Shown in pieces: positions 647 to 62,577 of a stretch of 64,000 bases of DNA. The stretch comes from Somniosus microcephalus (lineage: Eukaryota): NCBI GenBank assembly GCA_052327205.1, contig JBMRGM010000043.1, positions 25,358,001-25,422,000 on the forward strand, in the 5' to 3' direction. A program made the translations under genes and the position numbers. Numbering within the stretch: the stretch's first letter is position 1; every line of letters begins with the position of its first letter. Below the pieces are notes generated by a model that saw only the letters and a list, made by a program, of their open reading frames with translations, was not told the DNA's origin and made no database searches.

Positions 647-678
647 ATAACGATGGTGGCGCCTCAGGAAGGAAACAG
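647..678 (+). CDS. Gene A (FCRL-like) penultimate cytoplasmic mini-exon (NDGGASGRKQ)
   Basis: ttacag|…|gtaagt, 32 nt, phase 1 to 0; same exon at 60936-60967. Confidence 0.8.
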
Positions 679-1264
679 GTAAGTTATCTTTAGAGGGGAA
701 AGATGCTGCTGATAAATATCACAACCAATGCGGGTAGATTTCTAACGTACCTCCGCAAAGTAAAGCGTCGGCCATCAGTTATAGGAAAGACCCAATTGAA
801 ACACACACCCTTATCAAAAAGATATTCGTTTGGACTGTGAAACGAGCAGCACATTCGCTGTCCACCAGTTATGGTCCCACACTGCACAAAAGCAATTTTA
901 ACCCCGATGTCTATTATTCTCTATCATTGGGACATATATGCTGCTTGCGACTTGGGCTTAAAAAGTGCGATGACGATCTTTCACGCAGAATGGAAAACGC
1001 ACATTTTTAATTTGCAATGATTTGAATTAAAAATAGAATCCGGCAGTTCCAATCGACGCCAGTTTTAAGCCTGGGCCCAATTTCTGAAATCTATATCATT
1101 CTGTCTGCAAAGGTCGCTGCTAAACTGAATATATTGGCTCCACACCACTAAAGTAGCCCCTGATTAGTATTTTAAATCCAGACCATTATTTCCAACATTC
1201 AGTTGCCAGTTGTTTACAGAATAATAAAGAACATTGTAGTTTCGTTTCCCTGAAAGATCATTGC

Positions 1265-1862
1265 AAACATGGGTGCAGTAGCTTAGTGGTGACATAACTG
1301 GACTAGTAATCCAGAGACATCGACTAATGATCCGAAGACATAAGTTCAAATCCCACCATTGGCAGCTGGAGAAATTAAACTCAGTTAATTCAATAAATCT
1401 GGAATAAAAAGCTGATAACATTAATGATGACCATGACACACTCTGGTTGTTGTAAAACCCAACTAATGTCCTCAAGGAAGGAAATTGATTGTCCTTATCT
1501 GGTCTACCCTATATGTGACTCCAGACCCACTGACAATGTGGTTGACCATTAACTGCCCCTGAAATGGCCGAGCAAGCCGCTCAATTGTACCAAACTGCTC
1601 CGAAAATATGTTACCCTCATGGGAACACCTGCCCCTCCAAGTTACACACCATCCTGACTTGGAAGTATATTGCCGTTCCTTCATCACCGCTGGGTCAAAC
1701 TCCTAGAACTCAGTGCCTAACAGCACTGTGGGAGCAATGTAACTTCACAGATTGCAGTGTTTCAAGAAGGTGGTTCGCCACCACCTTCTAAAAGGCAATT
1801 AGGAATGGGCAATAAATGCTGGCTTTGCCAGCGACGCCCACATCCCGTGAATGAATAAAAAA
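1265..1862 (+). mobile_element. tRNA-derived SINE with LINE-derived 3' tail
   Basis: tRNA-like head (agcttagtgg…gttcaaatccc) and tail gccagcgacgcccacatccc-gtgaatgaataaaa; copy at 61557-62147. Confidence 0.75.
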
Positions 1863-2149
1863 TAATCATCCTTTGTTTAAATTTAGTCGGTTGTTTATTC
1901 ATTGCTAGTTTCATTCCAACCATTTTATTTTGATTTTTTACTCAGAGAGGAATCATAAGTCGAAGGGTGTGACCTCAGCCAGTTAATTGTCAGTAGATTT
2001 GACCATACTGTAAATCGGGTGATATTGAATTCGCCATCCATTATCCATCTCTCCCGACTTCTCTTCCACTGAAATCACCACTGATTCTCTCTCGGCAGCT
2101 GTGCATCACCGACCGAAACCAATTTCAACCCCATATTCTTTAATTGCAG

Positions 2150-2278
2150 GATAACAAGAATGGCCCCAGTGACTATTGTGTCGTATACGCCACAGTTAAC
2201 CGTACAAACACTGTAGCTAGTTTGGAAGGAGGTCCAATGGAAGAAGGCTGCGTCTACGAAAACCTCCCACGGAAATAA
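2150..2278 (+). CDS. Gene A terminal exon, ITIM-bearing tail DNKNGPSDYCVVYATVNRTNTVASLEGGPMEEGCVYENLPRK*
   Basis: ttgcag acceptor, open phase-0 frame to TAA; VVYATV fits the ITIM consensus V-x-Y-x-x-V; second Tyr motif CVYENL. Confidence 0.85.
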   Translation, partial: DNKNGPSDYCVVYATVNRTNTVASLEGGPMEEGCVYENLPRK

Positions 2279-3299
2279 GAGTGAAGCAGGATTAAAAAGC
2301 ATCGAAACAACGAGAAAAATGAATGCAGGAAACGTCAATCACCTTGTGCTATGCTCAAATTACCTGGCCTCAGGGACTTTAGTCTGAAGGCAGGTGAGGC
2401 CATTGTTCCTTGTGCAAGGTCTTCAAGGCACAGAGATCCTGCCCACCAGCAATTAAATATAAACCCATGCTTTACCCTGAAAGGACTTTATAACTCGAGG
2501 GACATCATGTCGCATGTTTTGCAGCTTATATTTTGCAGAAGGATCCTACGTGTGGCTTTGGTGGTGCTGCGTGCAAGACTATACTGTGTGTAAGACTATT
2601 ACATCGGAACATACACGCAGTTTATCGATGTTCTAATGCAATTAATTAATTGATGCGTTGGGGCTCTTGCTCTCATAATCCACCAGTGTTCTTGCATTCT
2701 TCCATAACTGCAGAGGGAGTTCAGTAGATCCCCTGGAGAAATTATGCAAATGCCCGAAGAAGGTGGGTGAAATCCTGTAGCAATTTCTAGGGTCAATTTT
2801 ATCTTTAGTCATGTTGTAAAATGAGTGCTATCAAATTGACCACTGATATAACCCCACGACATATTTACATATCCATTAAATTCAATATAAAGGAAAAGCG
2901 GGCATGATGTAAATTGGGAGACATGATTGGTATCGTACATTTCCCATCCTCACCCAAAGTTCAAATTAGTTCCAATCTATCTGAATGCCACAAGTAAACT
3001 GTATAGCGTAAGTGGTTGCAGTTTAATCTTCATGACCTGCGAGTTTAGCATTCCATGGGCAGACCGCATGATAGAATATCTGGTGGGGAGGATGTCCCAT
3101 TACTTGCAAAGCCAATCGAATTTTGCTTTCTTTCAGGCTTTAAAAATCAGGCCATTCTGTTACCGGTATTCCTCTTGCCAAATATTCCTTCCACGTTCCA
3201 GCGGTAAAGACTGAACTCTACCTCACCATATATTAGTGCCAAATGCATAAGTCATAGCGTTTTTTAATGCTACATGTTATGATGGGATTTTAAAAAATT

Positions 3300-4640
3300 A
3301 CACAGAACTTAAAGCTCAGTAACCGGCCATTCTGTCCAACTTATCTGTGCTGGTGTTTATGTTCCACACGCAAAACTTCTCACCTTCATTCATCTAATCC
3401 TATCAACATCTCCTTTAATTCCTTTCTCTCTTTGGTACTTAACCAGCTTCCCCTTTATCTAGCTTTCGCTTCAACCACTCCATGTAGGAGCAAGGTCCAC
3501 ACTCTCACCACTGCCTGGGAAAGATGTTTTTCCTGATTCTTTATTGCATGCATTAGCGACTATCTTATATTAATATAAAACTTCAGAAATTTCTATAAGT
3601 GGAATCATCTTCTCTATGCATAACCTATCAAACCCCTTCATAAACTTAAAGAACACTACTCGGTCTCCCCACAGCCTTCTGCTTTCTACAGAAAAGAATC
3701 CCAGTCTATTAGGTATATCTTGAGTGTTAAGACATTTCAGTTCTCTTATAATCCTCCTCAATCCTTTTTAACTTCTCTTGTTCTATTATATCCATTTAGT
3801 AATATATTACATAAGCACATTAGAATTAGGAGCAGGAGTAGGCCATTTGGTCTCTCCAGGCTGCTCTGGCATTCAATAAGATCATGGCTAATCTTCAAAC
3901 TTAACTCCACTTCTCCGCCCGATCTCCATGTCTCTTATTCCAACTAGAAACCAAAAATCAATCTTATCTCAGCCTTGAATGTACTCAATGATTCTGCATA
4001 CACAGCTAATTGGGAAATATGATTCCAAAGAGTCACAAACCTCTGAGAGAATTAATGTCTCCTCATGGCTGACCCCATATCTTGAGACTATGCCCCCTAG
4101 TTCTAGACTGTCCAGTCAGGTGAAAGAGCCTGTCAGCATTTATCCTGCAAATCCCCCTCAGAATCGTATGTTTCAATGAGATCACCTCTTATTCTTCTAA
4201 AATCCAGTGAGTATGGTCCCAATCTACTCAACCTCTCCTCATCGGACAACCCTCTCATCCCGGGAATCAACCATAGTGGACCTTCATTGAACCGCCTTTA
4301 AGCTAGAGACCACAAGAGGACACAATACTTTAATGTGGTCCAACTACGTTTCTATACACATTTAACATGGCTTCTCTGCTTTTCAATTCTTTTCCTCTAG
4401 AAATGGACTCCAATACTTTGGTATCATTTTTAAGGCGCTGTCAACTTGCATTACTAATTTTAATGATTTGTGAATGTTTACCCCTGGATCCCTTTGCTCC
4501 TCTACCCCATTTAGATTCTTTTTTTGCGAGTATTAAGTGGCTTCCTCAGTCCCCCTACCAAAACTCACAAACTAACTATGATAAAATTTGCTTGCCATGT
4601 ACACGCCTATTCTGAAAGTTTATTTAAATATTTTTATATT
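3300..4640 (-). mobile_element. Nested CR1 fragments
   Basis: Reverse-strand CR1 ORF2 remnants (LGFFSVESRRLWGD…) and two 3' ends. Confidence 0.75.
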
Positions 4641-5189
4641 TTCTCGTGTTTTGACAGCTTTTTATCGTTGAATAATAATAAATATAATTTTAAGAAATAT
4701 TCCCTGTTGTTCACAGATTGACAAACAAGTGTAAGTCTATTCATTAGGATTTCAAGCAAACATTCTGCTAATTCAATGCACAAATACAGCGGCTTAAGTT
4801 GGTAACTGGGCAATGACCATAACGTTCTGCCGGTGTTTCACTGGAGACTCCCTCCAATTGATTGGGTAAGACAGGGGAGGAAAATGTATTTCTGGCGACT
4901 TTCACTCATAATCCGCTGCATGTTTAATATATATATATTTATTTTAATCAATAAATATTCTGGGATGTGGCACAATACGAATATGGAAACAATTATTTTT
5001 GGCGATGGCGTCATAATGATTAACCTCTTTTTCTGAAAATTAGAGAAAGGAATAACAAAAATTACGTCAGTTCCTTATGGGCATTCCACATAAAGTGTTA
5101 TAGCGCATTGTCACTCTGTTTTTATCTACCCATCGATCTATCATTTTGTGTTTGTCCTACTACCTATCTAACTATCTCTCTGTATATTC

Positions 5190-5880
5190 ATCATCAGTAT
5201 AACAAATAATCAAAGGCATGCATCAATAGGACAGTTGAATTTCCAATCATAGATTGTATCAGTAGAATGGTACAGGCACTAACCATAGACCTGTATCAGT
5301 AGTACAGTATAATTGATAAACATAGGCCTGTACGAGTAGGACATTAAAGTTTCAAAAATCTGCCTGTACCGAAAGGACAGTATAGTTACTATTCAAAGTC
5401 CTGCAGCAATAGGACAATATAAACAGTCATCAAAATATCTGAGCCAGTATGAGAGTTTCGGTATTCACCATAGGCCTGCACCTTCTTACAGTATAGTTAA
5501 TGATTAGAGACCTGCAGCAGTCGGACATTATAGGCACTAATCACAGGCCTGTATCAGAAGGACAGTGAATATACTGAGCATTGACCGGCACCTGTAGGGC
5601 TATGTACTAATTACTAACTGCACGAGTAGTAAATTAAAGGTTCCTTATCCAGTGGCTCTGTATGGGTCCGAATCATAGACCAACACCAATATAACGGTAC
5701 AGATTTTAATTGGATTTCGCCACAGTAGTATAGCGTCGGTATTTTTTGGAGATCTGGGCAATGGGGACAATTTAGCTATCAATAGCTGACCTGTACTAGA
5801 AGTGGTGTCCAAGTGCTGATCATATACATTCTGCAGTAGGAGAGTCGAGGCAGCAATCATAGACCTGCAGCATTAGGTGA
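5190..5880. repeat. Degenerate ~37-bp minisatellite upstream of gene B
   Basis: Recurrent aggacagtata…cacagacctgtaccagt units at ~37-nt spacing (e.g. 5290, 5327, 5363, 5400). Confidence 0.75.
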
Positions 5881-6220: not shown

Positions 6221-6303
6221 GAAAATGCTGGAAAATATATTTATTTTCCAGCATTTTCTGTTGTAATTTCGGATTTCCAGCATCTGCAGTATTTTGCTAT
6301 CGT
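6221..6303. mobile_element. Short Penelope-terminal-repeat insertion with fold-back end and 14-bp TSD
   Basis: TSD ctgtgttaacggta at 6207-6220 and 6304-6317; single copy at the paralogous site ~31898; sequence resembles the Penelope end at 22000-22060. Confidence 0.75.
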
Positions 6304-6790: not shown

Positions 6791-6821
6791 ATGAAGCACA
6801 TCTGTCGCCTTCTGCTCTTCT
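6791..6821 (+). CDS. Gene B leader exon S1 (MKHICRLLLF)
   Basis: ATG, hydrophobic stretch, phase-1 gtaagt donor; paralog 32709-32739. Confidence 0.8.
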
Positions 6822-9558: not shown

Positions 9559-9588
9559 TGCAAATTACACATCAGGCGACCACACAAG
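9559..9588 (+). CDS. Gene B leader mini-exon S2 (LQITHQATTQ)
   Basis: tatttcag|30 nt|gtttga, phase 1-1; paralog 35959-35988. Confidence 0.75.
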
Positions 9589-13295: not shown

Positions 13296-13397
13296 TGCAG
13301 ATTCACACAACCGCGATCAGAGCCTCCATTCTTACACTTTTTCTTATCAGTGCCCTCATTGCATTGGTTTCGGTCAATCTTCCCACCAAGAAACAAG
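13296..13397 (+). CDS. Gene B transmembrane exon (VQIHTTAIRASILTLFLISALIALVSVNLPTKKQ)
   Basis: ttccag|102 nt|gtgagt, open, phase 1-1; paralog 52732-52833. Confidence 0.8.
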
Positions 13398-14997: not shown

Positions 14998-15028
14998 ACA
15001 TTTCTTCAAGAATTTTAAAACAAATGGG
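14998..15028 (+). CDS. Gene B cytoplasmic exon 1 (DISSRILKQM)
   Basis: atgcag|31 nt|gtaaat; paralog 53359-53389. Confidence 0.75.
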
Positions 15029-15888: not shown

Positions 15889-18800
15889 TGTGATGAAATA
15901 ACTCTGTGTTCTGGTATTTGTATTGTTGTTGTTGTTGTTGTTGTACTTGAACTTGTAATGTCTGGAATGTTCCACCGGAGGGAACCACTAATGCTCCTCC
16001 CTGGCCCCGCCCCTCTTCTGGTATGTTCTACCAAGGGCTCGGTCCATGATGAACTCTGTTAACTCTGCCATGATTCTTTACTTAATAAAAGCCTTCAGCC
16101 TTAAGCTTTAACTTCACGGATTCGGGCAGTTATTTGGCACATCACTTTTATTAAGTAACAACTTTTGGAAGATGGATCAATTTTTGAAACCAGAGTTTCT
16201 GGATATCGATCCGCATTCGGCAGATGCGTCGAAGAAATTTACGCATTGGCTGTGATGTTTTGAACACTTTATCGCTTCGTTCGATTCGACGGTTAACAAG
16301 TTGGGTCTTCTAACCAACTTGGTAAGTCATCAAACTTACTCTATAATTGAAGATATTACTACATATGAAGAGGCCCTCGCAGCTCTTAAAGCCCAGTTCC
16401 TTAAGTCGGTTAATGAAGTATACGCCAGGTATCTCCTGTCTACTCGCAGGCAATTACCCGAGGAAACTCTGGACGATTTCCTGCAGGACCTTAAGGCTTT
16501 GGCTAAGGGTTGCAACTACAAGGCTGTCTCTGCCATAGTGTATCAGGAAGAAGCCATCCGCGATTCTTTCATATCTGGCCTCCGATCTAATTATATTAGA
16601 CAGAGACTCCTCGAGAACGACTCGTTAGTTTTAAAAACGGTCGTCGCTGCTGCTCGATTGTTAGATGTAGCCCAGAAGAATTCAGAAGTGTATGCATCAG
16701 CCCATGCATCTCTCTCAGCCTCGTGTGTTCCGAGTATGGAGGCATCTATAACACCAATGGAGCCCCCACTTAATCCTATTGTTGCGGCTGTGCCCCATGG
16801 GTCTAAGTGTTATTTTTGTGGCCAATCGAAACACCCCAGGCAAAGTTGCCCAGCCAGAGAGGCTACCTGTTTTAAATGTAAGAAACGGGGACATTTTAGT
16901 AAAGTGTGTAAGGGTAATCCTGTATCCGAGCTCTTCTCTGCTGCCACCTATCTTTTTACTCTAGCCTCGGCTACGGTTGACCAGACCATACCGTGTTCCT
17001 TGTCAAAATCTATGATGGACATCAAGATTAATGGTCGTCCTACTGGGTGTTTGATAGACTGTGGCAGTACTGAAAGTTTTATACACCCCAACCTTGTTAA
17101 CTCCTGTTCGTTAAAGGTGTATCCTACTTGAAGAGAAATTGTGATGGCGTCTAAATCCCTTACTTCGGAGGTAACTGGTTATTGTAATGTCACATTGACC
17201 GTTAAGGATACGGAGTATAAGGACTTTAAACTCCTCATATTACCTCAGTTGTGTGTGAACTTAATGTTAGGCTTGGACTTCCAGTGTCAGCATGAGAGTG
17301 TTACCCTTAAGTATGGTGGATCTCAGCCTCCACTCACAGTCTGCGGCCTTTCTACTTTAAACGTAAGTCCGGCTTATTTGTTTGCGAACCTTGCTCCTAA
17401 TTGTAGACCTATAGCGACTAAGTGTCGATGATATAGTTCAGAAGATAAAACATTTATAAAAGAGGAAGTGGAAAGGCTTCAACGGGAGGGAATCATCGAA
17501 CACAGTGGTAGCCCGTGGCGTGCCCAGGTGGTGGTGGTTAAAACTAATGAGAAGAAAAGACTTGTGTTCGATTATAACCAGACTATAAACTTGTATACCC
17601 AATTAGACGCCTTTCCTTTGCCTCGCATTTCTGAGATCGTGAACCAGATAGCTCAGTACCGCGTGTTCTCCACCATGGATTTATAGTCTGCCTACCATCA
17701 ACTCCCCATCAAAATAGAAGACCGACCTTATACGGCCTTCGAAGCTAATGGGCGCCTGTACTAATTCCTTTGGGTGCCATTTGGAGTGACGAATGGGGTA
17801 TCCGTCTTCCAATGGGAGATGGATCGTATGATGGATGAATATGCATTGGAAGCAACATTCCCGTACCTGGGCAATGTTACCATCTGTGGGCGTGACCAAC
17901 GGGAGCATGATCAAAATCTTGCGATGTTCCTAGAGACTGCAAAGAGGTTAAACCTGACCGACAATGAAAACAAATGTACCTTCAATACTACACGTTTGTG
18001 TATTCTTGGTTGTGTTGTGGAGAATGGGGTAATCGGGCCAGACCCTGAAAGATTACGCCCACTTAAGGAATTACCTTTACCTCACACTGTAAATGCTTTA
18101 AGAAGGTGTCTGGGATTCTTCTCGTACTATGCCCAGTGGGTGGCTAGCTGTTCAGATAAAGTCCGAACTCTTATTAAGTCGACGTCTTTTCCGCTATCGG
18201 CGGAAGCTCAGGAGGCTTTCCTTAATATCAAACGGGACATTGAGAAGGCAGTGGTATGTGCCGTGGATGAGAAGCTCCCTTTTCAAGTGGAAAGAGATGC
18301 ATCTGATTTTGCGTTGGCAGCAACTCTTAACCAAGCTCGTAGACCAGTAGCTTTCTTCTCTCGTTCATTGCAAGGACCAGAAGTTCGACATTCTTCAGTG
18401 GAAAAGCAGGCACAGGCGATTATCGAAGCAGTCAGGTATTGGAGACATTATCTCGCTGGCCAACGTTTTACGCTCATTACTGACCAGCGATCCGTGGCCT
18501 TTATGTTCAACACTAAGCAGAGAGGCAAGATCAAAAATGATAAGATTTTAAGATGGCGAATAGAACTGTCAACATATGACTGTGATATTCAGTACAGGCC
18601 TGGAGTATTTAATGATCCATCGGATGCTTTGTCACGAGGAGTATGTGCTAGTCTAGGTACAGACATGCTTCAAAGTCTCCACGATGCACTCTGCCACCCT
18701 GGGGTTACCAGAATGAACCACTTCATTAAGTCCCACAATCTACCCTACTCTATTGAGGAGGTCCGCACAATGACCAGAACCTGTCATGTTTGTGCTGAAT

Positions 18801-19995
18801 GCAAACCCCGCTTCTATAAGCCGTCCGAGCCAGCTCATCTTATTAAAGCAACTCGACCACTTGAGCGTTTGAGTCTCGATTTTAAAGGTCCCCTTCCATC
18901 GAGCGACCGTAATGTCTTTTTTCTTAATATTATAGACGAGTACTCTCGGTTCCATTTTGTTAACCCCTGTTCGGATGTGACTAGTGCTGTTGTAATTAAA
19001 TGCCTCTGCCAACTGTTTTCCTTGTTCGGCATGCCTAACTATATACATAGTGATAGGGGTTCTTCCTTTATGAGCGAAGAATTACGACAGTTTTTGCTAT
19101 CGAAGGGGATTGCAACGAGTAGAACTACCAGCTATAACCCTCGTAGTAATGGGCAGGTCGAGAAAGAAAATGCGACAGTTTGGAAGGCTATCGTACTGTC
19201 TCTGAAGTCATGAGGCCTGCCAACCTCTCGCTGGCAGGATGTCCTGCCAGACGTGCTGCATTCCATAAGGTCTCTTTTGTGTACAGCGTCGAATGCCACC
19301 CCTCATGAAAGGATGTTTAGTTTTCCAAGAAAAGCTACTAATGGAGTATCGTTACCCACATGGTTGACGACCACGGGCCCTGTGTTGTTGCACAGGCATG
19401 TGAGAGGCCACAAGACTGATCCACTGGTGGAGGAAGTACAACTCCTCCATGCTAATCCCCAGTATGCGTATATTCAATATTCGGATGGGCGAGAGGATAC
19501 GGTCTCTATTAAAGATCTTGCACCTGCTGGAGCTCGAAAACAGTTCGACTCTGAGAGTAGAGTTTTCAATCGTGGTATTGGACCTTCAGAGACACAAACC
19601 CTCAGTGTGGAAAATACTGATGATTCTGGGAATTCGAATGAACGGGAGGTAGTACTCCGGGAGGAGCCTCAGCAAGAGTTACGTCATTCCCAGAGGATTA
19701 TCAGACCTCCTGACAGACTGAATCTATAGCAGGGGGTGAATGTGATGAAATAACTCTGTGTTCTGGTATTTGTATTGCTGTTGTTGTTGTTGTTGTACTT
19801 GTACTTGTAATGTCTGGAATGTTCCACCGGGGGGAACCACTAATGCTCCTCCCTGGCCCCGCCCCTCTTCTGGTATGTTCTACCAAGGGCTCGGTCGATG
19901 ATGAACTCTGTTAACTCTGCCATGATTCTTACTTAATAAAAGCCTTCAGTCTTAAGCTTTAACTTCATGGATTCAGGCAGTTATTTGGCACATCA
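15889..19995 (+). mobile_element. Full-length Ty3/Gypsy LTR retrotransposon (decayed), in a gene B intron
   Basis: LTRs 15889-16144 and 19741-19995 (TG…CA; 7 substitutions + 1 indel counted); 5-bp TSD GGCCC; PPT agggggtgaa. Confidence 0.97.
16172..19729 (+). pseudogene. gag-pol (CCHC knuckles, protease LIDCGS, RT, RNase H, integrase) in one frame broken by in-frame stops
   Basis: ORFs 16301, 17141, 17468, 17774 and 19253 share one frame; stops near 16253, 17129, 17429, 17684, 17762 and 19211. Confidence 0.92.
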
Positions 19996-21528: not shown

Positions 21529-21620
21529 GGAGGCAACTGGAAATAGAGCTCGACCCCCGAGTGAAGAGAAGTCTGCAGACAATTCCGAGTATGAAGCTGT
21601 GGGATCAGCCCGAAGCACCG
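21529..21620 (+). CDS. Gene B cytoplasmic exon 2 (EATGNRARPPSEEKSADNSEYEAVGSARST)
   Basis: 92 nt, phase 2 to 1, gtaagc donor; same size as paralog 55353-55444; SEYEAV fits S-x-Y-x-x-V. Confidence 0.7.
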
Positions 21621-32708: not shown

Positions 32709-32739
32709 ATGAAGCACATCTGTCGCCTTCTGATCTTCT
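32709..32739 (+). CDS. Gene C leader exon S1 (MKHICRLLIF)
   Basis: ATG, phase-1 gtaagt donor. Confidence 0.8.
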
Positions 32740-35958: not shown

Positions 35959-35988
35959 TGCAAGTTACTCAGCAGGCGACCACACAAG
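35959..35988 (+). CDS. Gene C leader mini-exon S2 (LQVTQQATTQ)
   Basis: tatttcag|30 nt|gtatga. Confidence 0.75.
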
Positions 35989-37294: not shown

Positions 37295-37544
37295 CTTCTG
37301 GGCCGGAAGTGCTGGTTAGTTATCCCAGCAGTGGTGTGGTAAAGGAAGGAGAGGAATTTAAGCTGCGGTGTCGATACAGTGGCAAAGCTACTTACGCTAA
37401 TTGGTTCAAAAATAATATACCTTTACATGAACCTCAGTGAGTTTTATGAATCGCTTGCAGACAGCAGCAGTGGAGGCTCTTACCAGTGTGAACTGTGGTC
37501 AAACAAATGGGAGAGGAGTGAGGCTCTGGAAGTTGTCACGATCG
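37295..37544 (+). pseudogene. Gene C Ig exon D1, frameshifted
   Basis: KEGEEFKLRC…NWFKNN in one frame, then GGSYQC…LEVV in another; 250 nt. Confidence 0.85.
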
Positions 37545-38557: not shown

Positions 38558-38818
38558 CTTCTGATATGATTTTAACTCTTGAAGTAAAACCAAGAGCCAC
38601 GCTTTCAGGTGAAAGAATTATCCTGAATTGTTTGGTGTCTGACCAGAAAGGGAGAGGATACTTCCTGTGGTATCAGAAAGAAGAGATAATATATGGAAGT
38701 TCTCAATCTCAGTACATCATAGCTAAAGCAGAAATTACAGATGAGGCATCGTATCGGTGTGAATGCAAAATAGGCTACAGGAAGTGGGTCTCGCAGGAAA
38801 TAAACGTCACCGTAACAG
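38558..38818 (+). CDS. Gene C Ig exon D2
   Basis: 261 nt, phase 1-1; GERIILNC…WYQK…DEASYRC. Confidence 0.9.
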
Positions 38819-40400: not shown

Positions 40401-40658
40401 ATGGCGATGTGACCTTCCAGGTCGACCCACCTTCGGTTTTGGAAGGAGATGTTCTGAATCTGAATTGTCGGTACAGAAAATATTATTGGATCAATAGAGA
40501 TGTTGGCTTTTACAAAGGCAATAGAAGGATCCACTCAATGAAGTTGTATAATTGGAAAGCTCAGCATAGCATTAGAGTGAATATTTCAAAAGACAGCAGA
40601 TCATACCATTGTACTATTGACAATAAGATTTCTCGAAGTGTTCACGTTCACGTTCACG
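40401..40658 (+). CDS. Gene C Ig exon D3 (FcR D2-like)
   Basis: 258 nt; VLEGDVLNLNC…VGFYKG…DSRSYHC. Confidence 0.88.
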
Positions 40659-42447: not shown

Positions 42448-42726
42448 AACACTTCTCCAAACCTAAACTGAGGACTTACCCTGCTGTTGAAATATTTGAG
42501 GGACACCAGTTAATATTCATCTGTATGATTGAAACAATGCCGTACACAAATGGCCTTCAATACTCATTTTACAAAAATGGCGAAGCTCTGATATTGAATA
42601 CATACAACAACTTTAAGCTCACAGAGACAGCTTCTTTGAAGGACTCGGGGAGTTACCTGTGTGAAGCAAATGTTTTCTACCGCTATGTGAAAAAGAAGAG
42701 TGATGAGGTTTCCATTGAGGTTAAAG
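42448..42726 (+). CDS. Gene C Ig exon D4 (FCRL D3-like)
   Basis: 279 nt; EHFSKPKL…EGHQLIFIC…LQYSFYKNG…DSGSYLCEA…KKKS. Confidence 0.92.
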
Positions 42727-44056: not shown

Positions 44057-44289
44057 AGGTTTTCTCCATACCCACATTGAAGGCTCAGTCTGGAGCTCAA
44101 TTATTTGAGGGCCAACAGTTAAATCTCGCCTGTTTGGTTAAAATATTTCGATCACTTCAGCGGCAGACCACAGCTATTACATCAAGGAGATATCTCGGCC
44201 GGATGATTCGGGGATTTACCTGTGTGAAGCAACCACTTGTAACAATGATGTGATGAAACGCAGCACTCCGGTTTCAGTTTCAGTCAAAC
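44057..44289 (+). pseudogene. Gene C Ig exon D5 with internal deletion and frameshift
   Basis: EVFSIPTL…EGQQLNLAC, then shifted DDSGIYLCEA…KRS; 233 nt versus 279 for sister exon D4. Confidence 0.85.
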
Positions 44290-44993: not shown

Positions 44994-45281
44994 GAATCCC
45001 ACTGGCCAAACCGGAACTGGCAATCAGCCCTGGTAAAGATTTAATAGAAGGAGACAGAGCGTCGTTAACCTGCACAGTGTCCAACGGTTCTACCCCAATT
45101 ACCTTCATTTTCTACATAGACCCGAATAAAGAACTCTTCCGAGAGGAGTCCAGCCGAACCACAATTACTTACCAAATCGGTGAAGTCAACCAAAGCACTC
45201 AAGGCGATTATAGTTGTGCTGTTTCAAACGAAGCGACAGGACATCCTCTACACAGCGATGTCGTTGCGGTTTCAGTGATAG
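44994..45281 (+). CDS. Gene C Ig exon D6
   Basis: 288 nt; IPLAKPEL…EGDRASLTC…GSTPITFIFY…GDYSCAVSN. Confidence 0.92.
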
Positions 45282-46275: not shown

Positions 46276-46810
46276 AATATATTTCAAGATCAATTGGGCA
46301 AAATAGGTTCTATCCCTAGATTATTGAAATATTGGCAGCATTGGAGCACTCAGGCTTAAAGCCCGAATTAGGCATCGCTCTGAATGGGGACAATGCAACT
46401 TTAGGTGAAGGAGAAACGTGGTTCATATCGAATTGTTCGCCCATTATAACCCCCGTCCTATATTTCGTTCCATTATATTCAGTGAGAAGGGAAACCGGGT
46501 GTGGTGTATGACTGGTGGATAATTCCACATCCTGCAATTCACACCATCTTGTAAAATTACAAATAATCCCCGAGATGTTCCGTATGAAACTTAGTGCAAG
46601 TTGTACTGTTGGCTCATTGTAACCAGTTACTATTTGGAGAATGTGCAGAAACTTTAGTTAGAACTAATATTCGTTTTCACTGATGGTACAGCACAAGGAC
46701 AATTCTGAACTAAATGTTTTCGCCAATGCATTTGTAGCTGATCAGCAATTCTTGAACCAGTCTGGTTTATTTATCTGATTTAATCTTAGTTAGTACTCAA
46801 AATAGGTATC

Positions 46811-49800
46811 TGTTGTGTCCGTGTGTTAATGGAGACACGGAATGCAGGAGTTGGTTTAACAGGTGTTTACTGAACAAAGTCTGGAGGTGAACAAAACGAT
46901 ACCAGACACTATACAGGCTTATATAGCCCGAGTGGCCACTACCGGCATTATAGTACACAGGGGCTCTTAAAGGCACATACACCACAATTCCTCCCATTTT
47001 AGACAACCAGTACATAACATTTTAAGTAATTGTTATTAACATGTGTACAAGAACGATAATCTACACATTTGCTGCAGTTAATCAATTATAAGTCAGTCTC
47101 TCTGGAGGCTTCCTGACTCGGTACGGATAACGCCTCGGTGGTGTAGTAGCTTTCGGTGGTATATTAGGTTCTTCTAGCAAGGTCGATTCAGCTTCAATAC
47201 CAGTGTCGGATTCATCTGGTTCCAGTATTACCGGATCGGAGGTAGATACTATGGGTATCTCTGCTTCATCATTAGGCGTATAGAGTGGTGGTGTAGGTTG
47301 TCCCTTTTCGGATGACTCTATGATCTGGTCAGCATGGCGCCTTATTATGCTTTCTCCAATGTCCACGGTATACATCAGCAGTCCTAGTCGTGTGCAAATA
47401 GTTCCAGGCTGCCATTTCTCGGTACAGTAGTCCCGGGCCAAATCCTGTTGACCTATCTGGAAGGTTCTAGTTGGCCTTTCATTCATGCCTTGAAATTGGC
47501 GGTTCTCTATGTCCCTTTGGATGTTTGGCTTGATCAAATCCAGCCGGCATCTTAGTCTTCTATTGAAAAACATCATGGCGGGAGTTTGGTTTGTAACCAC
47601 ATGTGTTGCATTCCTGTATGCAAACAAGAAGTTATCTACCTTATGCTGTAGATTAATTTCTTCATTACCTTTATGGCCTTCTTGAAGGTCTGGACAAACC
47701 TTTTAGCCAATCCATTGATGGCGGGATGGTATGGGGCGGACGTGTAGTGCTTAGCCCCATTGTTTTTTAAGTACTTCCTGAAATCTTCGGACACAAATTG
47801 TGGTCCATTATCAGAATAAATCTGTTCAGGCAGCCCATTCCTGGCAAATATGGTCCTTAATACTGTGATGGTATTTTCCGTGGTGGTGGAGGACATCTTT
47901 ATTTACTCCGGCCACTTGGAGTGTGCATCAACTGCGATTAAGAACATTGAGTCCATAAATGGACCAGCAAAGTCGATGTGTCCCCTTTGCCATGGAGATG
48001 AGGGCCACTCCCATGGATGTAGAGGGGCTTGTGGTGGGGCGTTTTGGACCTTCTGGCATCCTAGACAGCCCTTGGTCATTTCTTCGATGTCTCCATCGAT
48101 ACCTGGCCACCATACAAACGCTCTGGCTAGGTTCTTCATTTTCACTCCACCCAGATGCCCCTCGGGAAGCTCCTTTAGCACTTTATCCTGGAGTTTGGGT
48201 GGAATCACCACTCTGGATCCACACATCAAGGTTCCTCAGCACACTGACAGCTGTTCTCTCCTTTGCGAGAATGCTGGCAACAGTGGTTCACCGTTAAATC
48301 GTAGACTCGTGAGAGAGTTGGGTCATTTCTCATTTCCTTTTCAATGGTAGAATTTGTTACTGGTAGACATTCCACTATGGTTGAGTGGAACATTTCCACT
48401 GGGTCCACTGTAGGTGCCTCTTCTACTGTTGGCAACGGTAGACGCGATAATCCGTCAGCATTTCCATGCTGTTTTGATCCTTTGTATTCTATGTCATATT
48501 GGTGTGCCCCTAGGAAAAGGGGCCACCTCTGTAGCCTTTGCGCTGTCATAATGGGAATGCCCTTTTTAGGGTTGAATATGGAGACGAGGGGTTGATGGTC
48601 AGTCAACAAGGTCAATTTTTGTCCGTGTAGGTAATGGTTGAATTTCTTAACGCCCCATACCAGGCTGAGTGCTTCCCTGTCGATGTGGGCATAGTTACGC
48701 TCAGCTCAGTTCAATGAGCGTGACGCAAAAGCTATCGGCCGCTCCGAGCCATCAGGGAATCTCTGCGCTAATACCGCTCCTACGCCGTAAGGGGATGCAT
48801 CGCACGCCAGTCTGATTGGCAGTGATGGGTTGTAATGAGCCAAAACTTCCTTGGACGTGATCAAGCCTTTACATTTATGGAAGGCACGTTTACAGTCTTC
48901 GCTCCATTTCCAAATTATTCCCGTTTGTAGCAGTTCGTTAAGAGGGTGAAGAACAGTTGACAAGTTCGGTAAAAATTTATGATAGTAATTTATCAATCCC
49001 AGGAACGACCTTAATTGTGAGACATTTTCAGGTGCTGGGGCTTTTATGAGCGCTTCAATTTTTTCAGGTGACTAATTATGTGGCCACAATATGATATTTG
49101 TTTCTGGAAAAATTCGCACTTGGGGTGATTTGCTCGTAGGCCCCATTCTCTCAGACTCGTGAGCACCTGCTCCAAATTGGCAAGGTGCTCGTTGTCGTTT
49201 TCTCCTGTTACAAGGATGTCGTCTATGTAGCATTGAGTCCCCGGAATCCCTTGCAGGACTTGCTCCATAGCCCTTTGCCAGATAGCTGGAGCTGATGCTA
49301 CTCCGAAAACCAGTCGATTTTACTAGTACAGGCCTTTGTGTGTGTTTATCGTGAGATATTTTTAGAAGCCTCCTCAACCTCCATCTGTAGATATGCCTGA
49401 GCCAAGTCAATTTTGGTGAAACGTTTCCCTCCGGATAGTGAGGCGAAAATATCTTCTATCCTCGGAAGAGGATACTGTACCGTGTGAAGGACCGGGTTTA
49501 CAGTCACCTTGAAGTCCCCACAGATGCGAATTTTTCTCTGTTCTTCAGGTTTATCATTATTCAACATTTTCTTCATGACCGGGACGATGGGTGTTGCCCA
49601 CTCGATCCAATCTATCTTGGATAACACGTCTGCCTTTTCCAAATTCTCCAGCTCTGCCTCGACTGCTGGACGAATTGCGTATGGCGCCGGCCTTGCCTTA
49701 AAAAACTTGGGAATTGCCGCATCTTCCACTTTTATTGAGGCAGTGACGCCTTTCAAGGTTCCTAGTTCCTGTTGAAACACTTGTTTGGCGTTGGCCAAGA

Positions 49801-51549
49801 TATCTTTTAATCATTCAGGTTTGACGTCATCATAATTTTTTTTCTCACTGGCCACCGTCAGTGCCTGAATGGAGTGCCAGTCTAAACGTATCTTGCTGAT
49901 CCATTCTCGTCCCAACAGCGCTGGACCACCATCTTGCAGAACATATAAATACAACTTCTGTATTTCCTTGCCGTTGTATACAACAGGCACCCTTATTTTC
50001 CCTCTGGGGTATACTTTCTGGCCTGTATATGTCTTCAAGATAATGGATATGCCTTTCAAAGTTATATGCTGAAATAGCCGCTCGTAATCCCGTAGACTTA
50101 TGATGGTCAGAGCTGATCCTTTATCTATCTCCATTTTAACTGGGGACCCCGCTATCGTGAGGGTAACCCAAATGGTCTGGTAATCTTCTTTGGCAATTAC
50201 ATTATGTAATTTGAGAGAGCTTAGTCTCTTGTTTCCGGAGTCGTTATCGCTCTTCTGGTCTTTGGAGCTACTGTCCGTCATCATTTGTACCTTTCTGTAC
50301 TTTTCCTTATTGATTTTTTTTCTGTCAATGGTTTTTTTGTTTCCAGATCGGCATACATGTGTAATGTGTCCCATCTTTCCGCATTGCCTGCATGCATTGT
50401 CCTTGAACCAGCAGTCCCTCTGGTAATGGGTGGATCTGCCGCAGCGATAACATCTCTCTCAACCCCGTGTCATTTCATGGGTGCCGCAGTCTTGTGGCTT
50501 TTGCTGTATCTCTGCAGCTCCTCTTGCTGCTGCTTCGCATGATACAGCTACACTGAAAGCCTTGTCCAGTGTCAAATCTTTCTCAGAAAGTAGCCTTTTT
50601 CGTGTTCCTTTACTTAGGAGACCGCAGACGAATTTGTCTCGTAGAGAACCTGCCAGTCCTGCCCCGAATTGGCAGTGTAGGGTATCAACAATCTCCTTAA
50701 AATTCTTGTCCATCGGTTTGGCTGGAGTGATTAAGTTTTCTAACAGCCTGTATGTCCTTGCACCCATTAGATTTAGAAGTACCGATGCCTTTTTATCATA
50801 CTCTATTTTATTCGCTGTGAAATATACCACCACTCTCTCCACATATGTGGTCCAATCCTCTATATCGCCATCGAAATCAGTAATATTGCCAGTCTTAGGC
50901 ATCCTGAAAAAAAATGGCGCCTCCCGCGCTTTCCTTTCTTCCCCGCAGAAAAAAATGGCACCTCCCGCGCTTTGCTGCCGCTGCTGACAACTCTGTTCTC
51001 CGCGGTTTTTATTTACACAGGTATTTTTTTTTAATAGGTGGAGACTCGTTCCCGCCGGACTCTCTGGGACTTTTCCCTCCCTCTGCTTGGTCCGAACGCC
51101 GACCTGCTTTGCAGCGCCGGCCGTCTCCCGTATGCTCCACCCTCTGTCTCTGTTTACCTCCGCCTTCGCTGCTCGGTCCCACTGCAGAGCCAGCCGATGG
51201 AGCCCCAGCCCGCCGCCCAGGAAGGATTATTGCAGTACCTGCCACCAGCTCGGCTAGCTGGTGAAACCACAGTTTTTTTTTCTTTCTTGTTTTTCTTCGA
51301 CTTTCGCCTGAGGAATCGATATCCTTGAAGTGCTGCCGAATTGCAGGTAAGTCCGTTTCCAATTCGTCGCCACTGTTGTGTCCGTGTGTTAATGGAGACA
51401 CGGAATGCAGGAGTTGGTTTAACAGCTTTTTACTGAACAAAGTCTGGAGGTAAACTAAAAGATACAAGACACTATACAGGCTTATATTGCCCGAGTGGCC
51501 ACTACCGGCATTACAGTACACAGGGGCTCTTGAAGGCACATACACCACA
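46811..51549 (-). mobile_element. Full-length Mag-like Ty3/Gypsy LTR retrotransposon (decayed) in the gene C D6-D7 intron
   Basis: 176-bp LTRs 46811-46986 and 51374-51549 (9 differences counted); PBS TGGCGACGA; PPT; TSD gtatc/gtttc; gag, PR, RT (YIDD), RH and IN ORF fragments. Confidence 0.96.
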
Positions 51550-51618
51550 GTTTCAATTTTGAATTGTAACTTGCAGAATTAATTCTCTACATCGTTAAAC
51601 TTATTTGCTTTTCTCTAG

Positions 51619-51921
51619 TTCCTGTAGCTGGTGCTTCTCTCACATCCACTACCAACAAAACTGAGATTCCAGCTGGGGACCATCTCGTTCTCCAGTGCTT
51701 GGTGAAGAGAGGCACTGCACCGCTTTTCTGCTGGCACCTGAACAACCAACAGTTAGAAAATAAGAGCGAATCTTATCACTTAAGTACGAACGGGAGTGAA
51801 CTCATTATCAGTTCATTCCAGACAGGCCATGGAGGTCGATTTCATTGTGTAGCGACCAACAGCGGGACCTATGAAGGAATATTTAACACAACCAGCAATT
51901 ATATCAGTGTCACGGTACAAG
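51619..51921 (+). CDS. Gene C Ig exon D7
   Basis: 303 nt; VPVAGASL…GDHLVLQC…FCWH…GRFHCVATN. Confidence 0.9.
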
Positions 51922-52731: not shown

Positions 52732-52833
52732 CACAAAGTCACACAACCGCGATCACAGCAACAGTTCTTCCACTTTTTCTGATCGCTGCCCTGACTGCAC
52801 TGGTTTTCTTCAAACTTCGGAAGAAGAAACAAG
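52732..52833 (+). CDS. Gene C transmembrane exon (AQSHTTAITATVLPLFLIAALTALVFFKLRKKKQ)
   Basis: 102 nt; uncharged TM followed by a basic stop-transfer stretch. Confidence 0.88.
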
Positions 52834-53358: not shown

Positions 53359-53389
53359 ACAATTCCTCAAGTGTTTCACAGCAGCAGGG
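53359..53389 (+). CDS. Gene C cytoplasmic exon 1 (DNSSSVSQQQ)
   Basis: atccag|31 nt|gtaagt. Confidence 0.78.
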
Positions 53390-55352: not shown

Positions 55353-55444
55353 GGTGCCAAAGTAAAATAGATCTCGAACCCCGAGTGATGTATCATCTGC
55401 GAGCAATTTCACGTATGCAGTTGTTGGATCAGCCCGAGACACTG
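55353..55444 (+). pseudogene. Gene C cytoplasmic exon 2 with in-frame TAA (55363)
   Basis: VPK*NRSRTPSDVSSASNFTYAVVGSARDT; 92 nt like the gene B exon. Confidence 0.72.
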
Positions 55445-56433: not shown

Positions 56434-56489
56434 TTTCTAGTTCTGATCAGGTAACATACAGTGTATTAAAGGCACGGAGCCCATGGAAG
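56434..56489 (+). CDS. Gene C cytoplasmic exon 3 with ITIM VTYSVL (likely 1-nt deletion)
   Basis: ctacag|56 nt|gtaagg; ends in phase 0 whereas the next exon needs phase 1. Confidence 0.6.
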
Positions 56490-57272: not shown

Positions 57273-57338
57273 ATGATACCGGAACTGCTGCCCATTTAGT
57301 GTAGTCGGAGTTCACGATCAGAATGTCACGAGATTGTG
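57273..57338 (+). pseudogene. Gene C cytoplasmic exon 4 with TAG at a probable Tyr (LV*SEF)
   Basis: atgtag|66 nt|gtaaat, phase 1-1, joins 60936 in frame. Confidence 0.6.
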
Positions 57339-60645: not shown

Positions 60646-60935
60646 AAATATCAAGTAGATGATATTAGCACATGTAATTTTAACCTAACTCAGCCTGGCC
60701 GAAAATGGACAGGATCTGGTGAAAGGCTGGTTGCCAATCGCACCCAATTATACTCTCCTACTACCGTGGAGAGTAAGGTCCATTGGGTGGTAAACCCAGA
60801 AATTGTACCAATCCCTTCAGTTTACTGCCAGGGTTGGTTAAATTAAAATGACGCCTGATTAGGCTGGCTTCATCTTATTCTGTACATCGACGACCCAGAT
60901 TGTTGCCTTTATAATGCATCTGCTTTATTTTACAG

Positions 60936-60967
60936 ATAACGATGTTGGTGCCTCAGGAAGGAAACAG
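60936..60967 (+). CDS. Gene C penultimate mini-exon (NDVGASGRKQ)
   Basis: ttacag|32 nt|gtaagt. Confidence 0.8.
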
Positions 60968-61556
60968 GTAAGTTATCCTTAGAGGGGAAAGATGCTGCTG
61001 ATAAATATTACAACCAATGCGGCTAGATTTCTAACTTACTTCTGCAAAGTAAAGCGTCGGCCATCAGTTAAAGCAATGGCCCAATTGAAACACACACACT
61101 TATCGAAAAGATATTCGTTTTGACTGTGAAACGAGCAGCACATTCGCTGTCACCCGTTATGGTCCCACTGCCGAAGAGCAATTTTAACCCCGATGTCTAT
61201 TATTCTCTACCATTGGGACAGCTATTCTGCTTGCTTCTTGGGCTTAAATAGGGCGATGAGGATCTTTCACGCAGAATAGAAAACGCACACTTTTAATTTG
61301 CAATGATTTGAATTAAAAGTAGAATCCGGCGGTTCCGATCGACGCCACGTTTAAGCCTGAGCCCATTTTGTAATATCCACATCATTCTGTCTGCAAAGGT
61401 CGCTCCTAATCTGAAAATATTGACTCCACCCCACTAAAGTAACCAGAGAATAATAATTTAATTCCCAGCCATTACTTCAATCATTCAGTTGCCAGTTGTT
61501 TACCGAATGATAAAGACCATTGTAGTTTCGTTCCACCGAAAGATCACTGCAATCAT

Positions 61557-62147
61557 GGGTGCAGTAGCTTAGTGGTTACATAACTTGACTAATAATCCAG
61601 AGGTCTCGACTAATGATCAGATGACATGAGTTCATAATGCCACTACTGCTAGCTGGGGAATGTAAACTCAGTTTATTAAATAAATCTGGAATAAAAAGCT
61701 GATAACATTAATGGTGACCATGACACTCTCGGGTTGTTGTAAAACCCAAATAATGTCCTCAAGGAAGGAAGTTGACTGTCCTTAACTGGTCTACCCTATA
61801 TGTGACTCCAGACCCACTGGCAATGTGTTTGATACTTAACTGCCCCTGAAATGGCCTAGCAAGCCGTTCAATTGTACCAAACCACTACGAAAAGAGGTTA
61901 CCCCTATGGGGCCACCTTCCCCTCCAGGTCACACACCATCCTGACTTGGAAGTATATTTCCGTTTACTCATCGCCGCTGGGTGAAACTCCTGGATCTCCC
62001 TCCCTAACAGCACTGTGGGGTAACCGTCATTAAACAGACTGCAGCATTTCAAGAAGGCGGTTCGCTGCCACCTCTCAATGGCAATTAGGAATGGGCAGTA
62101 AATGCTGGCCTTGTCAGCGACGCCCACATACCGTGAATGAATAAAAA
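61557..62147 (+). mobile_element. tRNA-derived SINE (paralog of 1265-1862)
   Basis: Same head and tail. Confidence 0.75.
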
Positions 62148-62448
62148 CTTATCATCGCTTGTTTAAATTTAATCAGTAGTTTCTTCATTGCTAGTTTCAT
62201 TCCAACCACTTTATTCTGATTTTAAACTATAACAGTTAACTCAGAGAGGCATTAGAAGTGAAATAGAGTGTCCTCAGCCAATTAATTGAAAGTAGTTTTG
62301 ACCATACTGTAAATCGGGCGATATTGACTTGGCCATCCATTATCCATCTCTCCCGACTTCCCTTCCACTGAAGTCACCACTGATTCTCTCTTGGTAGCTG
62401 TTCACCGCCGCCTGAGACCAACTTCAAACCCATATTCTTTAATTACAG

Positions 62449-62577
62449 GATAACAAGAATGGCCCCAGCGACTATTGTGTCACATACGCCACAGTTAACC
62501 GTGCAAACACTGAAGCTAGTTTGGAAGGAGGTCCAATGGAAGAAGGCTGTGTCTGTGAAAACCTTCCACGGCAATAA
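62449..62577 (+). CDS. Gene C terminal exon DNKNGPSDYCVTYATVNRANTEASLEGGPMEEGCVCENLPRQ*
   Basis: Open to TAA; ITIM VTYATV retained; distal Tyr replaced by Cys. Confidence 0.85.
   Translation, partial: DNKNGPSDYCVTYATVNRANTEASLEGGPMEEGCVCENLPRQ

Follow-up and report, generated by a model that had tools for sequence, protein, structure and literature searches.

The 64-kb window, by which we mean the whole stretch of DNA analyzed here, contains the remains of three copies from an expanded family of shark genes, a family that probably shares an ancestor with the tetrapod FCRL genes, lies on a contig carrying markers of the leukocyte receptor complex (LRC), and has intact members predicted to be inhibitory leukocyte receptors. 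The three copies in the window are all dead, and copy C is a pseudogene. Judged from its sequence, the family is FCRL-like and likely inhibitory, and evolves by birth and death. In the following, C43 is the contig carrying the window, while C21, C28 and C39–C41 are other contigs of the same assembly.

Copies A, B and C are arranged head-to-tail, all on the + strand (Table 1), as the first-pass annotation had described. That annotation had also given each copy a full structure with seven Ig exons, which proved to be a composite: no copy in the window has a working full structure, and only copy C has seven Ig exons. Copy A is represented by its last two exons, its body lying upstream of the window, with exon 4 disrupted. 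In copy B, the interval from S2 (ending at 9588) to the TM exon (starting at 13296) contains no Ig exon, and tail exons beyond c3 were not found in the window. A scan of the window with an Ig HMM detected Ig segments in copy C only. The tail regions of copies A and C are 85.7% identical over 3.7 kb.

Table 1. Features of the three receptor gene copies in the window.
Copy	Feature	Position	Strand	Remarks
A	Tail exon c5	647..678	+	32 nt
A	Last coding exon	2150..2278	+	VVYATV and CVYENL
B	Leader exon S1	6791..6821	+	31 coding nt
B	Leader exon S2	9559..9588	+	30 nt
B	TM exon	13296..13397	+	Arg-bearing "B" type
B	Tail exon c1	14998..15028	+	
B	Gypsy-type LTR retrotransposon in intron	15889..19995	+	LTRs 96.9% identical; RT, RNase H and integrase domains
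B	Tail exon c3	21529..21620	+	SEYEAV
C	Leader exon S1	32709..32739	+	31 nt
C	Leader exon S2	35959..35988	+	30 nt
C	Ig exon 1	37295..37544	+	Short divergent domain, subtype apparently not assignable; frameshifted
C	Ig exon 2	38558..38818	+	Subtype apparently not assignable
C	Ig exon 3	40401..40658	+	FCRL D2 type
C	Ig exon 4	42448..42726	+	FCRL D3 type; top PDB matches FcgRI, FCRL5 and FCRL4
C	Ig exon 5	44057..44289	+	D3 type; internal 46-nt deletion and frameshift
C	Ig exon 6	44994..45281	+	D4 type common to FCRL and PECAM1
C	LTR retroelement in intron 6	46810..51552	-	Terminal repeats 94.4% identical; protease and zinc-knuckle matches
C	Ig exon 7	51619..51921	+	Amphibian FCRL D6 type
C	TM exon	52732..52833	+	Uncharged
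C	Tail exon c1	53359..53389	+	
C	Tail exon c3	55353..55444	+	FTYAVV; in-frame TAA at 55363
C	Tail exon c4	56434..56489	+	VTYSVL; 1 nt short
C	Tail exon c4b	57273..57338	+	TAG at 57302 replaces Tyr of the paralogs' LVYSEV
C	Tail exon c5	60936..60967	+	
C	Last coding exon	62449..62577	+	VTYATV; terminal YENL changed to CENL, Tyr lost

Copy C possesses seven Ig exons flanked by AG/GT, one TM exon and six tail exons; a seventh candidate tail exon, "c2", was dropped, its splice sites being inconsistent among the paralogs. The copy carries three frameshifts, two stops and an LTR insert, and its reading frame meets the first stop at amino acid 68. Exon 1 is two nucleotides short near 37435 and exon 5 is 46 nucleotides short near 44150; because of these losses the two exons are not phase-symmetric, so that the phase-1 Ig exons described earlier fail in these two cases. 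This decay, like the LRC markers around the cluster, had been overlooked, as had exon c4b. Otherwise the description of the leader and tail was sound: the split leader is present in copies B and C (31 + 30 nt), copy C has a TM exon and a tail of mini-exons, and all of the quoted tyrosine motifs were found (FTYAVV and VTYSVL in copy C, SEYEAV in B, VxYATV in A and C, and CVYENL in A). Of these, FTYAVV and CVYENL depart from the ITIM consensus.

The family comprises at least 46 TM exons, and all those found are on C43, as are 88 of the 89 matches to a D3-rich query. Ten gene models were made from the cluster, two with complete ORFs, and many other copies are broken. The complete ORFs, elsewhere in the cluster, encode 5 and 9 Ig domains, an uncharged TM and 3–5 YxxV/I motifs; in these models, D and b1-2, every Ig exon is phase 1-1 with AG/GT. 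The intact copies occupy C43:25434343–25483350 and 30722645–30757000. Wherever a copy possesses both leader exons, S1 is 31 nt and S2 is 30 nt. The tail motifs of model D are FEYAVV, VIYSVV, LVYSEV, VTYAAV and NVYENI, and three tyrosines of the tail occur in all 14 shark and ray proteins compared. A second TM type accounts for 21 of the 46 TM exons; in those read, an Arg precedes the hydrophobic core and the later tail exons are missing. The NxxR motif is absent from the family TMs read, and the B-type TM was rejected as an NxxR segment because only the Arg matches. A gene linked to the family has the domain order D1-D2-D2-D4-D5.

The proposed shark host was borne out, since the best relatives are shark proteins with 52–63% identity, followed by marsupial FCRL2 with 31%. 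Relatives occur in rays as well as sharks, and those in RefSeq (XP_067878188.1, XP_038642884.1, XP_072884649.1 and XP_043539698.1) share the architecture and the tail motifs. RefSeq entries of this family are called "Fc receptor-like protein 2/3/5/6" or "PECAM-like"; these are pipeline labels, split between FCRL and PECAM. Sequencing run X1, which differs from the assembly at many sites, was taken to be DNA because it covers introns evenly and has no splice joints at the exons.

The earlier description of an FCRL-like birth-and-death cluster is supported by domain typing, copy number and the many broken copies, while a 21-nt S2 and linkage to the 1q23 markers tested are missing; the mini S2 exon, offered as an FCRL hallmark, is 30 nt here. 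Only a fraction of the Xenopus XFL genes obey the 30/21 leader rule of FcR/FCRL genes (PMC2413239). With tetrapod subtype profiles, exons 3, 4, 5, 6 and 7 were typed as D2, D3, D3, D4 and D6, with scores of 35, 54, 57, 52 and 72 bits, respectively; on the D6 profile, non-FCRL controls scored at most 37 bits. Exons 1 and 2 did not appear assignable to any subtype. With reverse profiles made from the shark domains, the top ranks went to FCRL D2 for exon 3 (54 bits), FCRL D3 for exons 4/5 (68 bits) and amphibian D6 for exon 7 (86 bits), the best PECAM scores being 38, 41 and 36 bits. The family exons score higher on an FcR-type profile than on a LILR-type one, and PDB searches placed FCRL5 first for exon 6 (for exon 4, see Table 1), with no LILR or KIR chain among the 52 (exon 4) and 35 (exon 6) matches. 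In a tree of exon 7, the shark domain clusters with amphibian D6, published as Xenopus-specific, with support of 81/93; one long CEACAM row intrudes, and a constrained tree was better, which favours the D6 clade.

Comparisons of whole proteins did not discriminate. BLAST with the whole ectodomain, confounded by repeats, gave 185 bits for Xenopus XFL, 169 for a teleost Siglec-like protein, 166 for caecilian FCRL and 145 for shark PECAM. A shark relative was modelled with AlphaFold (pLDDT 73.7); its Foldseek E-value ranking was led by PIR-B, contactins and sidekicks, while FcgRI and FCRL5 had the best identity (22–24%) and TMt (0.57–0.59).

The dN/dS ratio was 0.89–1.15 in exons 2–4 and 0.54–0.61 in exons 5–7, with exon 1 at only 0.62; the pairs behind these figures are interdependent, and some of the exons come from dead copies. 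These values suggest that the ligand would be bound by the fast-evolving, membrane-distal exons 1–4, with exons 5–7 as a conserved stalk. By analogy with FCRL and LILR biology, a Src-family kinase would phosphorylate the tail tyrosines, which would then recruit SHP-1/SHP-2, and B-cell-receptor or FcR-gamma signalling would be dampened as a result. Turnover of the copies would proceed by unequal recombination and exon shuffling, with remnants such as A, B and C left behind. As ligand, a fast-changing surface, whether of a microbe or of polymorphic self, is more likely than an unchanging Ig Fc.

Nonetheless, the intact members could be true Fc receptors for shark IgM, IgW or IgNAR, as the first-pass annotation had suggested, which is compatible with the family assignment, if somewhat unlikely. 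Among solved structures, the nearest relatives include FcgRI and FCRL5 in complex with IgG Fc. A 1988 paper cited in PMC6795676 has the title "Fc receptor for shark IgM", and the intact copies are candidates for the receptor that this title names. Genes auto-named fcrl3/fcrl5, possibly orthologous to the family, are reported to be high in bamboo shark B cells (PMC11372145). However, rapid turnover and a distal dN/dS near 1 suit a changing ligand better than a constant Fc. The main family also has no clear D1 domain, and the D1–D2 tryptophan pair, which grips IgG in classical FcgRs, was not seen in exon 3.

A check of the flanking synteny, as the first-pass annotation had proposed, found LRC markers on C43 and the tested 1q23 markers elsewhere. 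Four of the seven LRC markers (TTYH1, TSEN34, PRPF31, NDUFA3, CNOT3, RPS9 and LENG8; PMC6557307) are linked on C43 at scaffold level, namely NDUFA3, PRPF31, TSEN34 and TTYH1. LENG8 has a weak candidate on C43, CNOT3 is on C28, and RPS9 was not found in the assembly search; ETS and RGS-like RhoGEF had no match on C43. LILR/KIR-like exon arrays also lie on C43, where the LILR-like exons form a distinct set neighboring the family; LILR-like exons also fill C39–C41. The 1q23 markers PRCC and UFC1 are on C41, and nicastrin, FcR-gamma-like and TAGLN-like genes on C40, so that none of these five 1q21-23 genes is on C43.

We consider it unlikely that this location is a scaffolding artefact in which FCRL-like contigs, rich in repeats, were placed on the wrong chromosome. 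Three 500-N gaps (C43:25238421, 30236404 and 31887578) do separate FCRL-like from LILR-like exons, and each junction checked between the two crosses an assembly gap. Moreover, a 129-kb block is present twice at 99.8% identity (25.24–25.37 and 30.24–30.37 Mb, perhaps alleles), each copy beginning right after a gap; contig depths were 9–22 in this block and 10–13 for near-exact contigs in the window, depth being no measure of copy number. On the other hand, every TM exon found sits on C43, and FCRL-type queries had no match at E ≤ 0.001 on C40 or C41. One TM + c3 module of the family lies at 21.51 Mb within a LILR-like array, 3.8 Mb from the nearest cluster. C43 also shows no gap between 25.52 Mb and, at the least, 25.93 Mb in the direction of TSEN34 (26.44 Mb), the remaining ~0.5 Mb being outside the stretch read.

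It is also improbable that the family, rather than being orthologous to tetrapod FCRL, is a shark- and ray-specific offshoot of PECAM1 or the ohnologue of PECAM1 on the TTYH1 chromosome. Exon 6 is nearest to PECAM D4/D2, its reverse profile scoring best on PECAM D4 (68 vs. 53 bits). In the best two-domain (D3–D4) tree, shark PECAM1 D1-D2 joins the family with support of 80/84, and a grouping of shark and tetrapod FCRL was neither recovered nor rejected (AU p 0.26); the trees contained no tetrapod PECAM1 or MILR1 sequence, and a quick tree of 119 domains left 62 of 116 forks open. Some members are named "PECAM-like" by NCBI, PECAM1 likewise has its leader split and its ITIM tail spread over several exons, and the two contigs are marked by TTYH1 (C43) and TTYH2. 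The latter is on C21 with a separate six-domain PECAM1-like gene, whose first domain matches PECAM1 D1. However, the PECAM row sits on a branch of 2.1 changes per column, and PECAM domains score below the family on D3 (37 vs. 54–62) and D6 (≤37 vs. 68–75). PECAM lacks the D1, D2 and D6 types, whereas D2 and D6 are present in the family and D1 and D2 in the linked gene. Furthermore, an ohnologue origin would be compatible with ancestral FCRL status.

That the genes are relatives of CD22/Siglec or CEACAM is already largely refuted and very improbable: the Siglec-like protein in the BLAST search is a repeat protein and Siglec C2 domains equal the FCRL scores on exons 1–2, but Siglec/CEACAM rows reach 41, 49 and 27 bits with the reverse profiles of exons 3, 4/5 and 7, against 54, 68 and 86 for FCRL, and an N-terminal V-set exon is absent both from the shark relatives and from the complete models, where the leader runs straight into a C2 exon.

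The preferred reading, a shark family sharing an ancestor with tetrapod FCRL, touches on published statements. Two papers state that FCRL-like genes are absent from sharks, and reviews call both FcR-like and LRC receptors absent; we found no paper on this family or on a shark FCRL–LRC linkage, most subscription papers being outside our reach. The candidates in this genome would place the origin of both the FcR family and the LRC at the base of the jawed vertebrates. If the linkage is true, two families called absent from sharks adjoin on one shark chromosome, and the view, argued for a long time, that FcR-type and LILR-type genes have a common origin and share TMs (PMC2413239) would gain a physical basis. 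The surprise is tempered by the death of all the window copies and by the labels that RefSeq already gives to their relatives. Tentatively, sharks may keep an ancestral jawed-vertebrate state, with FcR-type and LILR/KIR-type genes in one exon-swapping TTYH1–TSEN34 complex. A TM/tail module of the FCRL family, its TM exon at C43:21.515 Mb, lies 14 kb from a LILR-like exon at 21.53 Mb. FCRL would then be a PECAM1 ohnologue, D6 would be ancient, and the tetrapod FcR locus at 1q21-23 would have separated later. The short-tailed TM type with its Arg would serve as activating partner to a shark FcR-gamma chain.

Among known systems, the amphibian FcR-like receptors (Xenopus XFL, PMC2413239; caecilian "FCRL3", XP_030043362.1) likewise form a large birth-and-death cluster with shuffled domain architectures. 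They share the repeated D3, the order D2-D3n-D4-D6 with D6 membrane-proximal, the two-exon leader, the uncharged TM and the multi-exon YxxL/V tail. The shark family differs in having an additional pair of divergent N-terminal domains, in lacking NxxR in those TMs that were read and, in the main family, in showing neither a clear D1 nor a clear D5. XFL linkage is to SLAMF8/IGSF9/DUSP23/TAGLN2; in the shark, the TAGLN-like gene is beside nicastrin on C40. Mammalian FCRL1-6/FCGR1 (human FCRL5, marsupial FCRL2) have D2, D3 and D4 in the same order, with 31% identity over the three domains, and share the phase-1 Ig exons, the ITIM-type tail and the 31-nt first leader exon. By comparison, the shark S2 is 30 rather than 21 nt, D6 replaces D5, ~46 TM exons stand against a handful of mammalian FCRL genes, and the family is off the contigs with PRCC, UFC1, nicastrin and the FcR-gamma-like gene. 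PECAM1 has D3-, D4- and D5-type domains in common with the family, as well as the split leader and ITIM tail, but the shark has its own PECAM1-like gene on C21, which lacks the D2 and D6 types. With the LRC receptors (LILR, KIR and PIR-B), the family shares its contig and markers, the logic of inhibitory receptors and haplotype-like copy variation, but their Ig domains are of LILR type, whereas those of the shark family are of FcR type.

The window (G000:C43:25358001-25422000, in a genome of 6.45 Gb) carried three broken copies of an FCRL-like receptor gene on the + strand, named A, B and C, as seen by reading the sequence and mapping exons (see the table). The first-pass annotation had described a gene present as three paralogs; three copies do exist, and all the Tyr motifs it quoted are present, but the gene described was a composite. 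A search of copy B for an Ig exon found none there. Copy C comprised two leader, seven Ig, one transmembrane (TM) and six tail exons, with a stop ending the reading frame at residue 68. Exon 1 lacked 2 nt and exon 5 lacked 46 nt, while the tail had a TAA in exon c3, a 1-nt deletion in c4 and a TAG in c4b, and had lost its last tyrosine. The exon 1 lesion was probably not an assembly error, because in a public DNA run the two bases at 37435 were likewise absent from about 10 of the 30 depth units of the contigs. Two conserved, exon-like segments, ≈94% identical and each upstream of a leader exon, are probably an untranslated first exon at the 5' end; together with the first leader exon, this segment also turned up repeatedly as orphan copies across the clusters.

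Features of the window (window positions), the wider family and its chromosomal neighbourhood
Feature	Contig	Position	Strand	Remark
Copy A exons	window	647-678, 2150-2278	+	only these in window
Copy B leader exons	window	6791-6821, 9559-9588	+	
Copy B TM exon	window	13296-13397	+	two tail exons
Exon-like segments	window	6511-6609, 32101-32199		
Gypsy-type LTR element in copy B	window	15889-19995		intron of dead copy; terminal repeats 96.9% identical
LTR retroelement	window	46810-51552		intron of dead copy; terminal repeats 94.4% identical
Model D	C43	12 kb beyond window		complete ORF, 1019 aa, with 9 Ig domains and five Tyr motifs; the c4 acceptor is weak
Model b1-2				complete ORF, 663 aa, 5 Ig domains
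Divergent FCRL-like gene	C43	25634356-25656713	-	D1-D2-D2-D4-D5-D5
Its paralogue	C43	25273699-25287472	+	
NDUFA3	C43	16.22 Mb		LRC neighbour
PRPF31	C43	16.29 Mb		LRC neighbour
LENG8, weak candidate	C43	26.27 Mb		LRC neighbour
TSEN34	C43	26.44 Mb		LRC neighbour
TTYH1	C43	26.9-27.1 Mb		LRC neighbour
PRCC, UFC1	C41			
Nicastrin, TAGLN-like gene	C40			
FcR-gamma-like TM exon	C40	10607082-10607165	-	2 Mb from nicastrin

The nearest proteins were from sharks, at 52–63% identity, and the relatives that carry a species name included proteins of catshark, bamboo shark and zebra shark as well as of two rays. This makes the host an elasmobranch and most likely a shark, in agreement with the chondrichthyan origin proposed earlier.

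Against the PDB, exon 4 matched FcgRI, FCRL5 and FCRL4 best, and exon 6 matched FCRL5, summed over the FCRL5 repeats. With subtype profiles from 999 anchor-sorted tetrapod FCRL domains, the best profiles were D2 for exon 3 (35 bits), D3 for exons 4 and 5 (54 and 57), D4 for exon 6 (52) and D6 for exon 7 (72). PECAM, Siglec and CEACAM controls reached 44 (D2), 46 (D3), 62 (D4) and 37 (D6) bits, so that in this direction D3 and D6 were diagnostic and D2 and D4 were not. When shark-domain profiles were run against 89 reference domains, FCRL D2 ranked first for exon 3, FCRL D3 for exons 4/5, amphibian D6 for exon 7 and PECAM for exon 6; exons 1–2 had no clear assignment. In a 40-row tree, exon 7 grouped with amphibian D6 (81/93); one long CEACAM row fell within that group, and the likelihood was higher for the tree that kept this row out. 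D6 was termed Xenopus-specific in the accessible part of PMC2413239; the type also occurs in this shark family and a caecilian.

The trees were divided: exon 7 joined amphibian D6, but in a D3–D4 tree of 21 rows, all without tetrapod PECAM1, shark PECAM1 D1–D2 joined the family on a long branch (80/84), and in the same set a shark plus tetrapod FCRL constraint was not rejected (AU p 0.26). A PECAM1-like gene of six Ig exons exists separately in this shark (C21:69.78-69.94 Mb), and 110 kb upstream of it lies a second, partial copy. The leader exons measured 31 and 30 nt, which departs from the 30/21 rule for FcR/FCRL in the accessible part of PMC2413239. Because neither the 21-nt exon nor 1q23 linkage was found, we use "FCRL-like" rather than strict FCRL membership: typing of D2, D3 and D6 favoured the proposed assignment, and the 30-nt mini-exon and linkage did not. 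Overall, the earlier observation was partly confirmed and its interpretation partly supported.

PRCC, UFC1, nicastrin, TAGLN-type and FcR-gamma markers map to human 1q21-23. All those tested lay off C43, on C40 and C41; C43 instead carried neighbours of the leukocyte receptor complex (LRC). A further exon lay on C14, and from their TM motifs we take the C40 and C14 exons to be FcR-gamma- and CD247-like, respectively. In a 2014 survey, no FcR-gamma was reported from sharks; the C40 exon is a candidate. The LRC-neighbour list came from the accessible part of PMC6557307. CNOT3 was on C28, not C43, RPS9 was not found in a genome search, and TTYH2 was on C21 together with PECAM1. A late TTYH1 exon occurred twice, nearly identical, at C43:27.02 and 27.08 Mb, 60 kb apart.

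An exon 40 kb ahead of the small cluster matched PIR-B, LILR and KIR, and similar exons lay at C43 21.5-42.5 Mb and on C39–C41 (150 of 719 candidates scored). A profile from 17 such C43 exons ranked PIR-B first and FCRL5 second, followed by LILRs and KIRs. These very large arrays (including L095:6205-6507) may represent a shark LRC-like expansion. By coordinates alone, a B-type TM and c3 pair at 21.51 Mb lay 14 kb downstream of a same-strand LILR-like exon (C43:21511632-21530197, -), possibly a hybrid gene. Histone H3- and H2A-like reading frames lay at C43:31.891-31.893 Mb, between the large cluster's end and degenerate LILR-like exons.

All 113 genomic matches to exon 4 fell on C43, where they formed clusters spanning 25.3-25.5 and 30.3-31.9 Mb. 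The combined TM-exon searches gave at least 46 exons, all on C43 (25 of copy C type, 21 of B type); these counts are lower bounds and include many near-identical exons, and reading covered ≈0.76 Mb of the ≈2 Mb of cluster sequence. Weak matches to family Ig exons occurred at C21:57.08 Mb, C3:268.33 Mb and C12:202.8 and 204.7 Mb. Ten gene models yielded two complete ORFs and five broken ones; one was open up to the end of the DNA examined, one lacked a start and one was uncertain. Domain architecture varied from copy to copy. Mean dN/dS among paralogous exons 1–7 was 0.62, 0.89, 0.94, 1.15, 0.54, 0.58 and 0.61 (4–12 sequences per exon; the pairs are not independent, and any exon carrying a stop or frameshift was excluded). 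A divergent gene typed as D1-D2-D2-D4-D5, its second D5 copy left unscored, resembled tetrapod FCRL3 in layout more than the main family does; neither a TM nor a leader exon was located for it.

All three junctions checked between FCRL-like contigs and the nearest LILR-like exons contained a gap; the stretch read at C43 25.52-25.93 Mb, short of TSEN34 at 26.44 Mb, was free of gaps. A 129-kb block, which takes in window bases 1-9666, occurred twice (C43:25238921-25367666 and 30237354-30366093; 99.8% identical), each copy beginning directly after a gap. We lean towards two haplotypes scaffolded in tandem, in which case copy counts would be inflated and alleles would differ in gene content outside the shared block too.

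FcRL, FcR-gamma and LRC homologues were not found in sharks according to the accessible part of PMC4016189, and the part seen of PMC13337447 (2026) restated the absence of Fc receptor-like molecules. RefSeq names the relatives FCRL2/3/5/6 or PECAM-like, and the portion consulted of PMC11372145 places fcrl3/fcrl5 in bamboo shark B cells. The only addition from the accessible parts of PMC7916592, PMC9141580, PMC4536121 and PMC6795676 was the title of a cited work on an Fc receptor for shark IgM. Our literature search turned up neither an account of the family nor one that links it to LRC markers. The main interest lies outside the window, in the family's intact copies, its ancient D6 domain and its LRC neighbourhood.

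The intact copies are predicted type I membrane proteins in which the TM is uncharged and V/L/IxYxxV motifs are present, and three tail tyrosines were invariant in 14 of 14 relatives. That they bind Ig seems rather unlikely. In B-type copies an Arg precedes the TM core, and no more than two tail exons were found; that these copies are activating partners of FcR-gamma seems equally doubtful. In FCRL and LILRB receptors, ligand binding leads to tail phosphorylation, SHP-1/2 recruitment and dampened activation; by analogy, ligand binding to the intact copies would lead to phosphorylation of the tail, which may then recruit SHP-1/2 and dampen activation as in those receptors.
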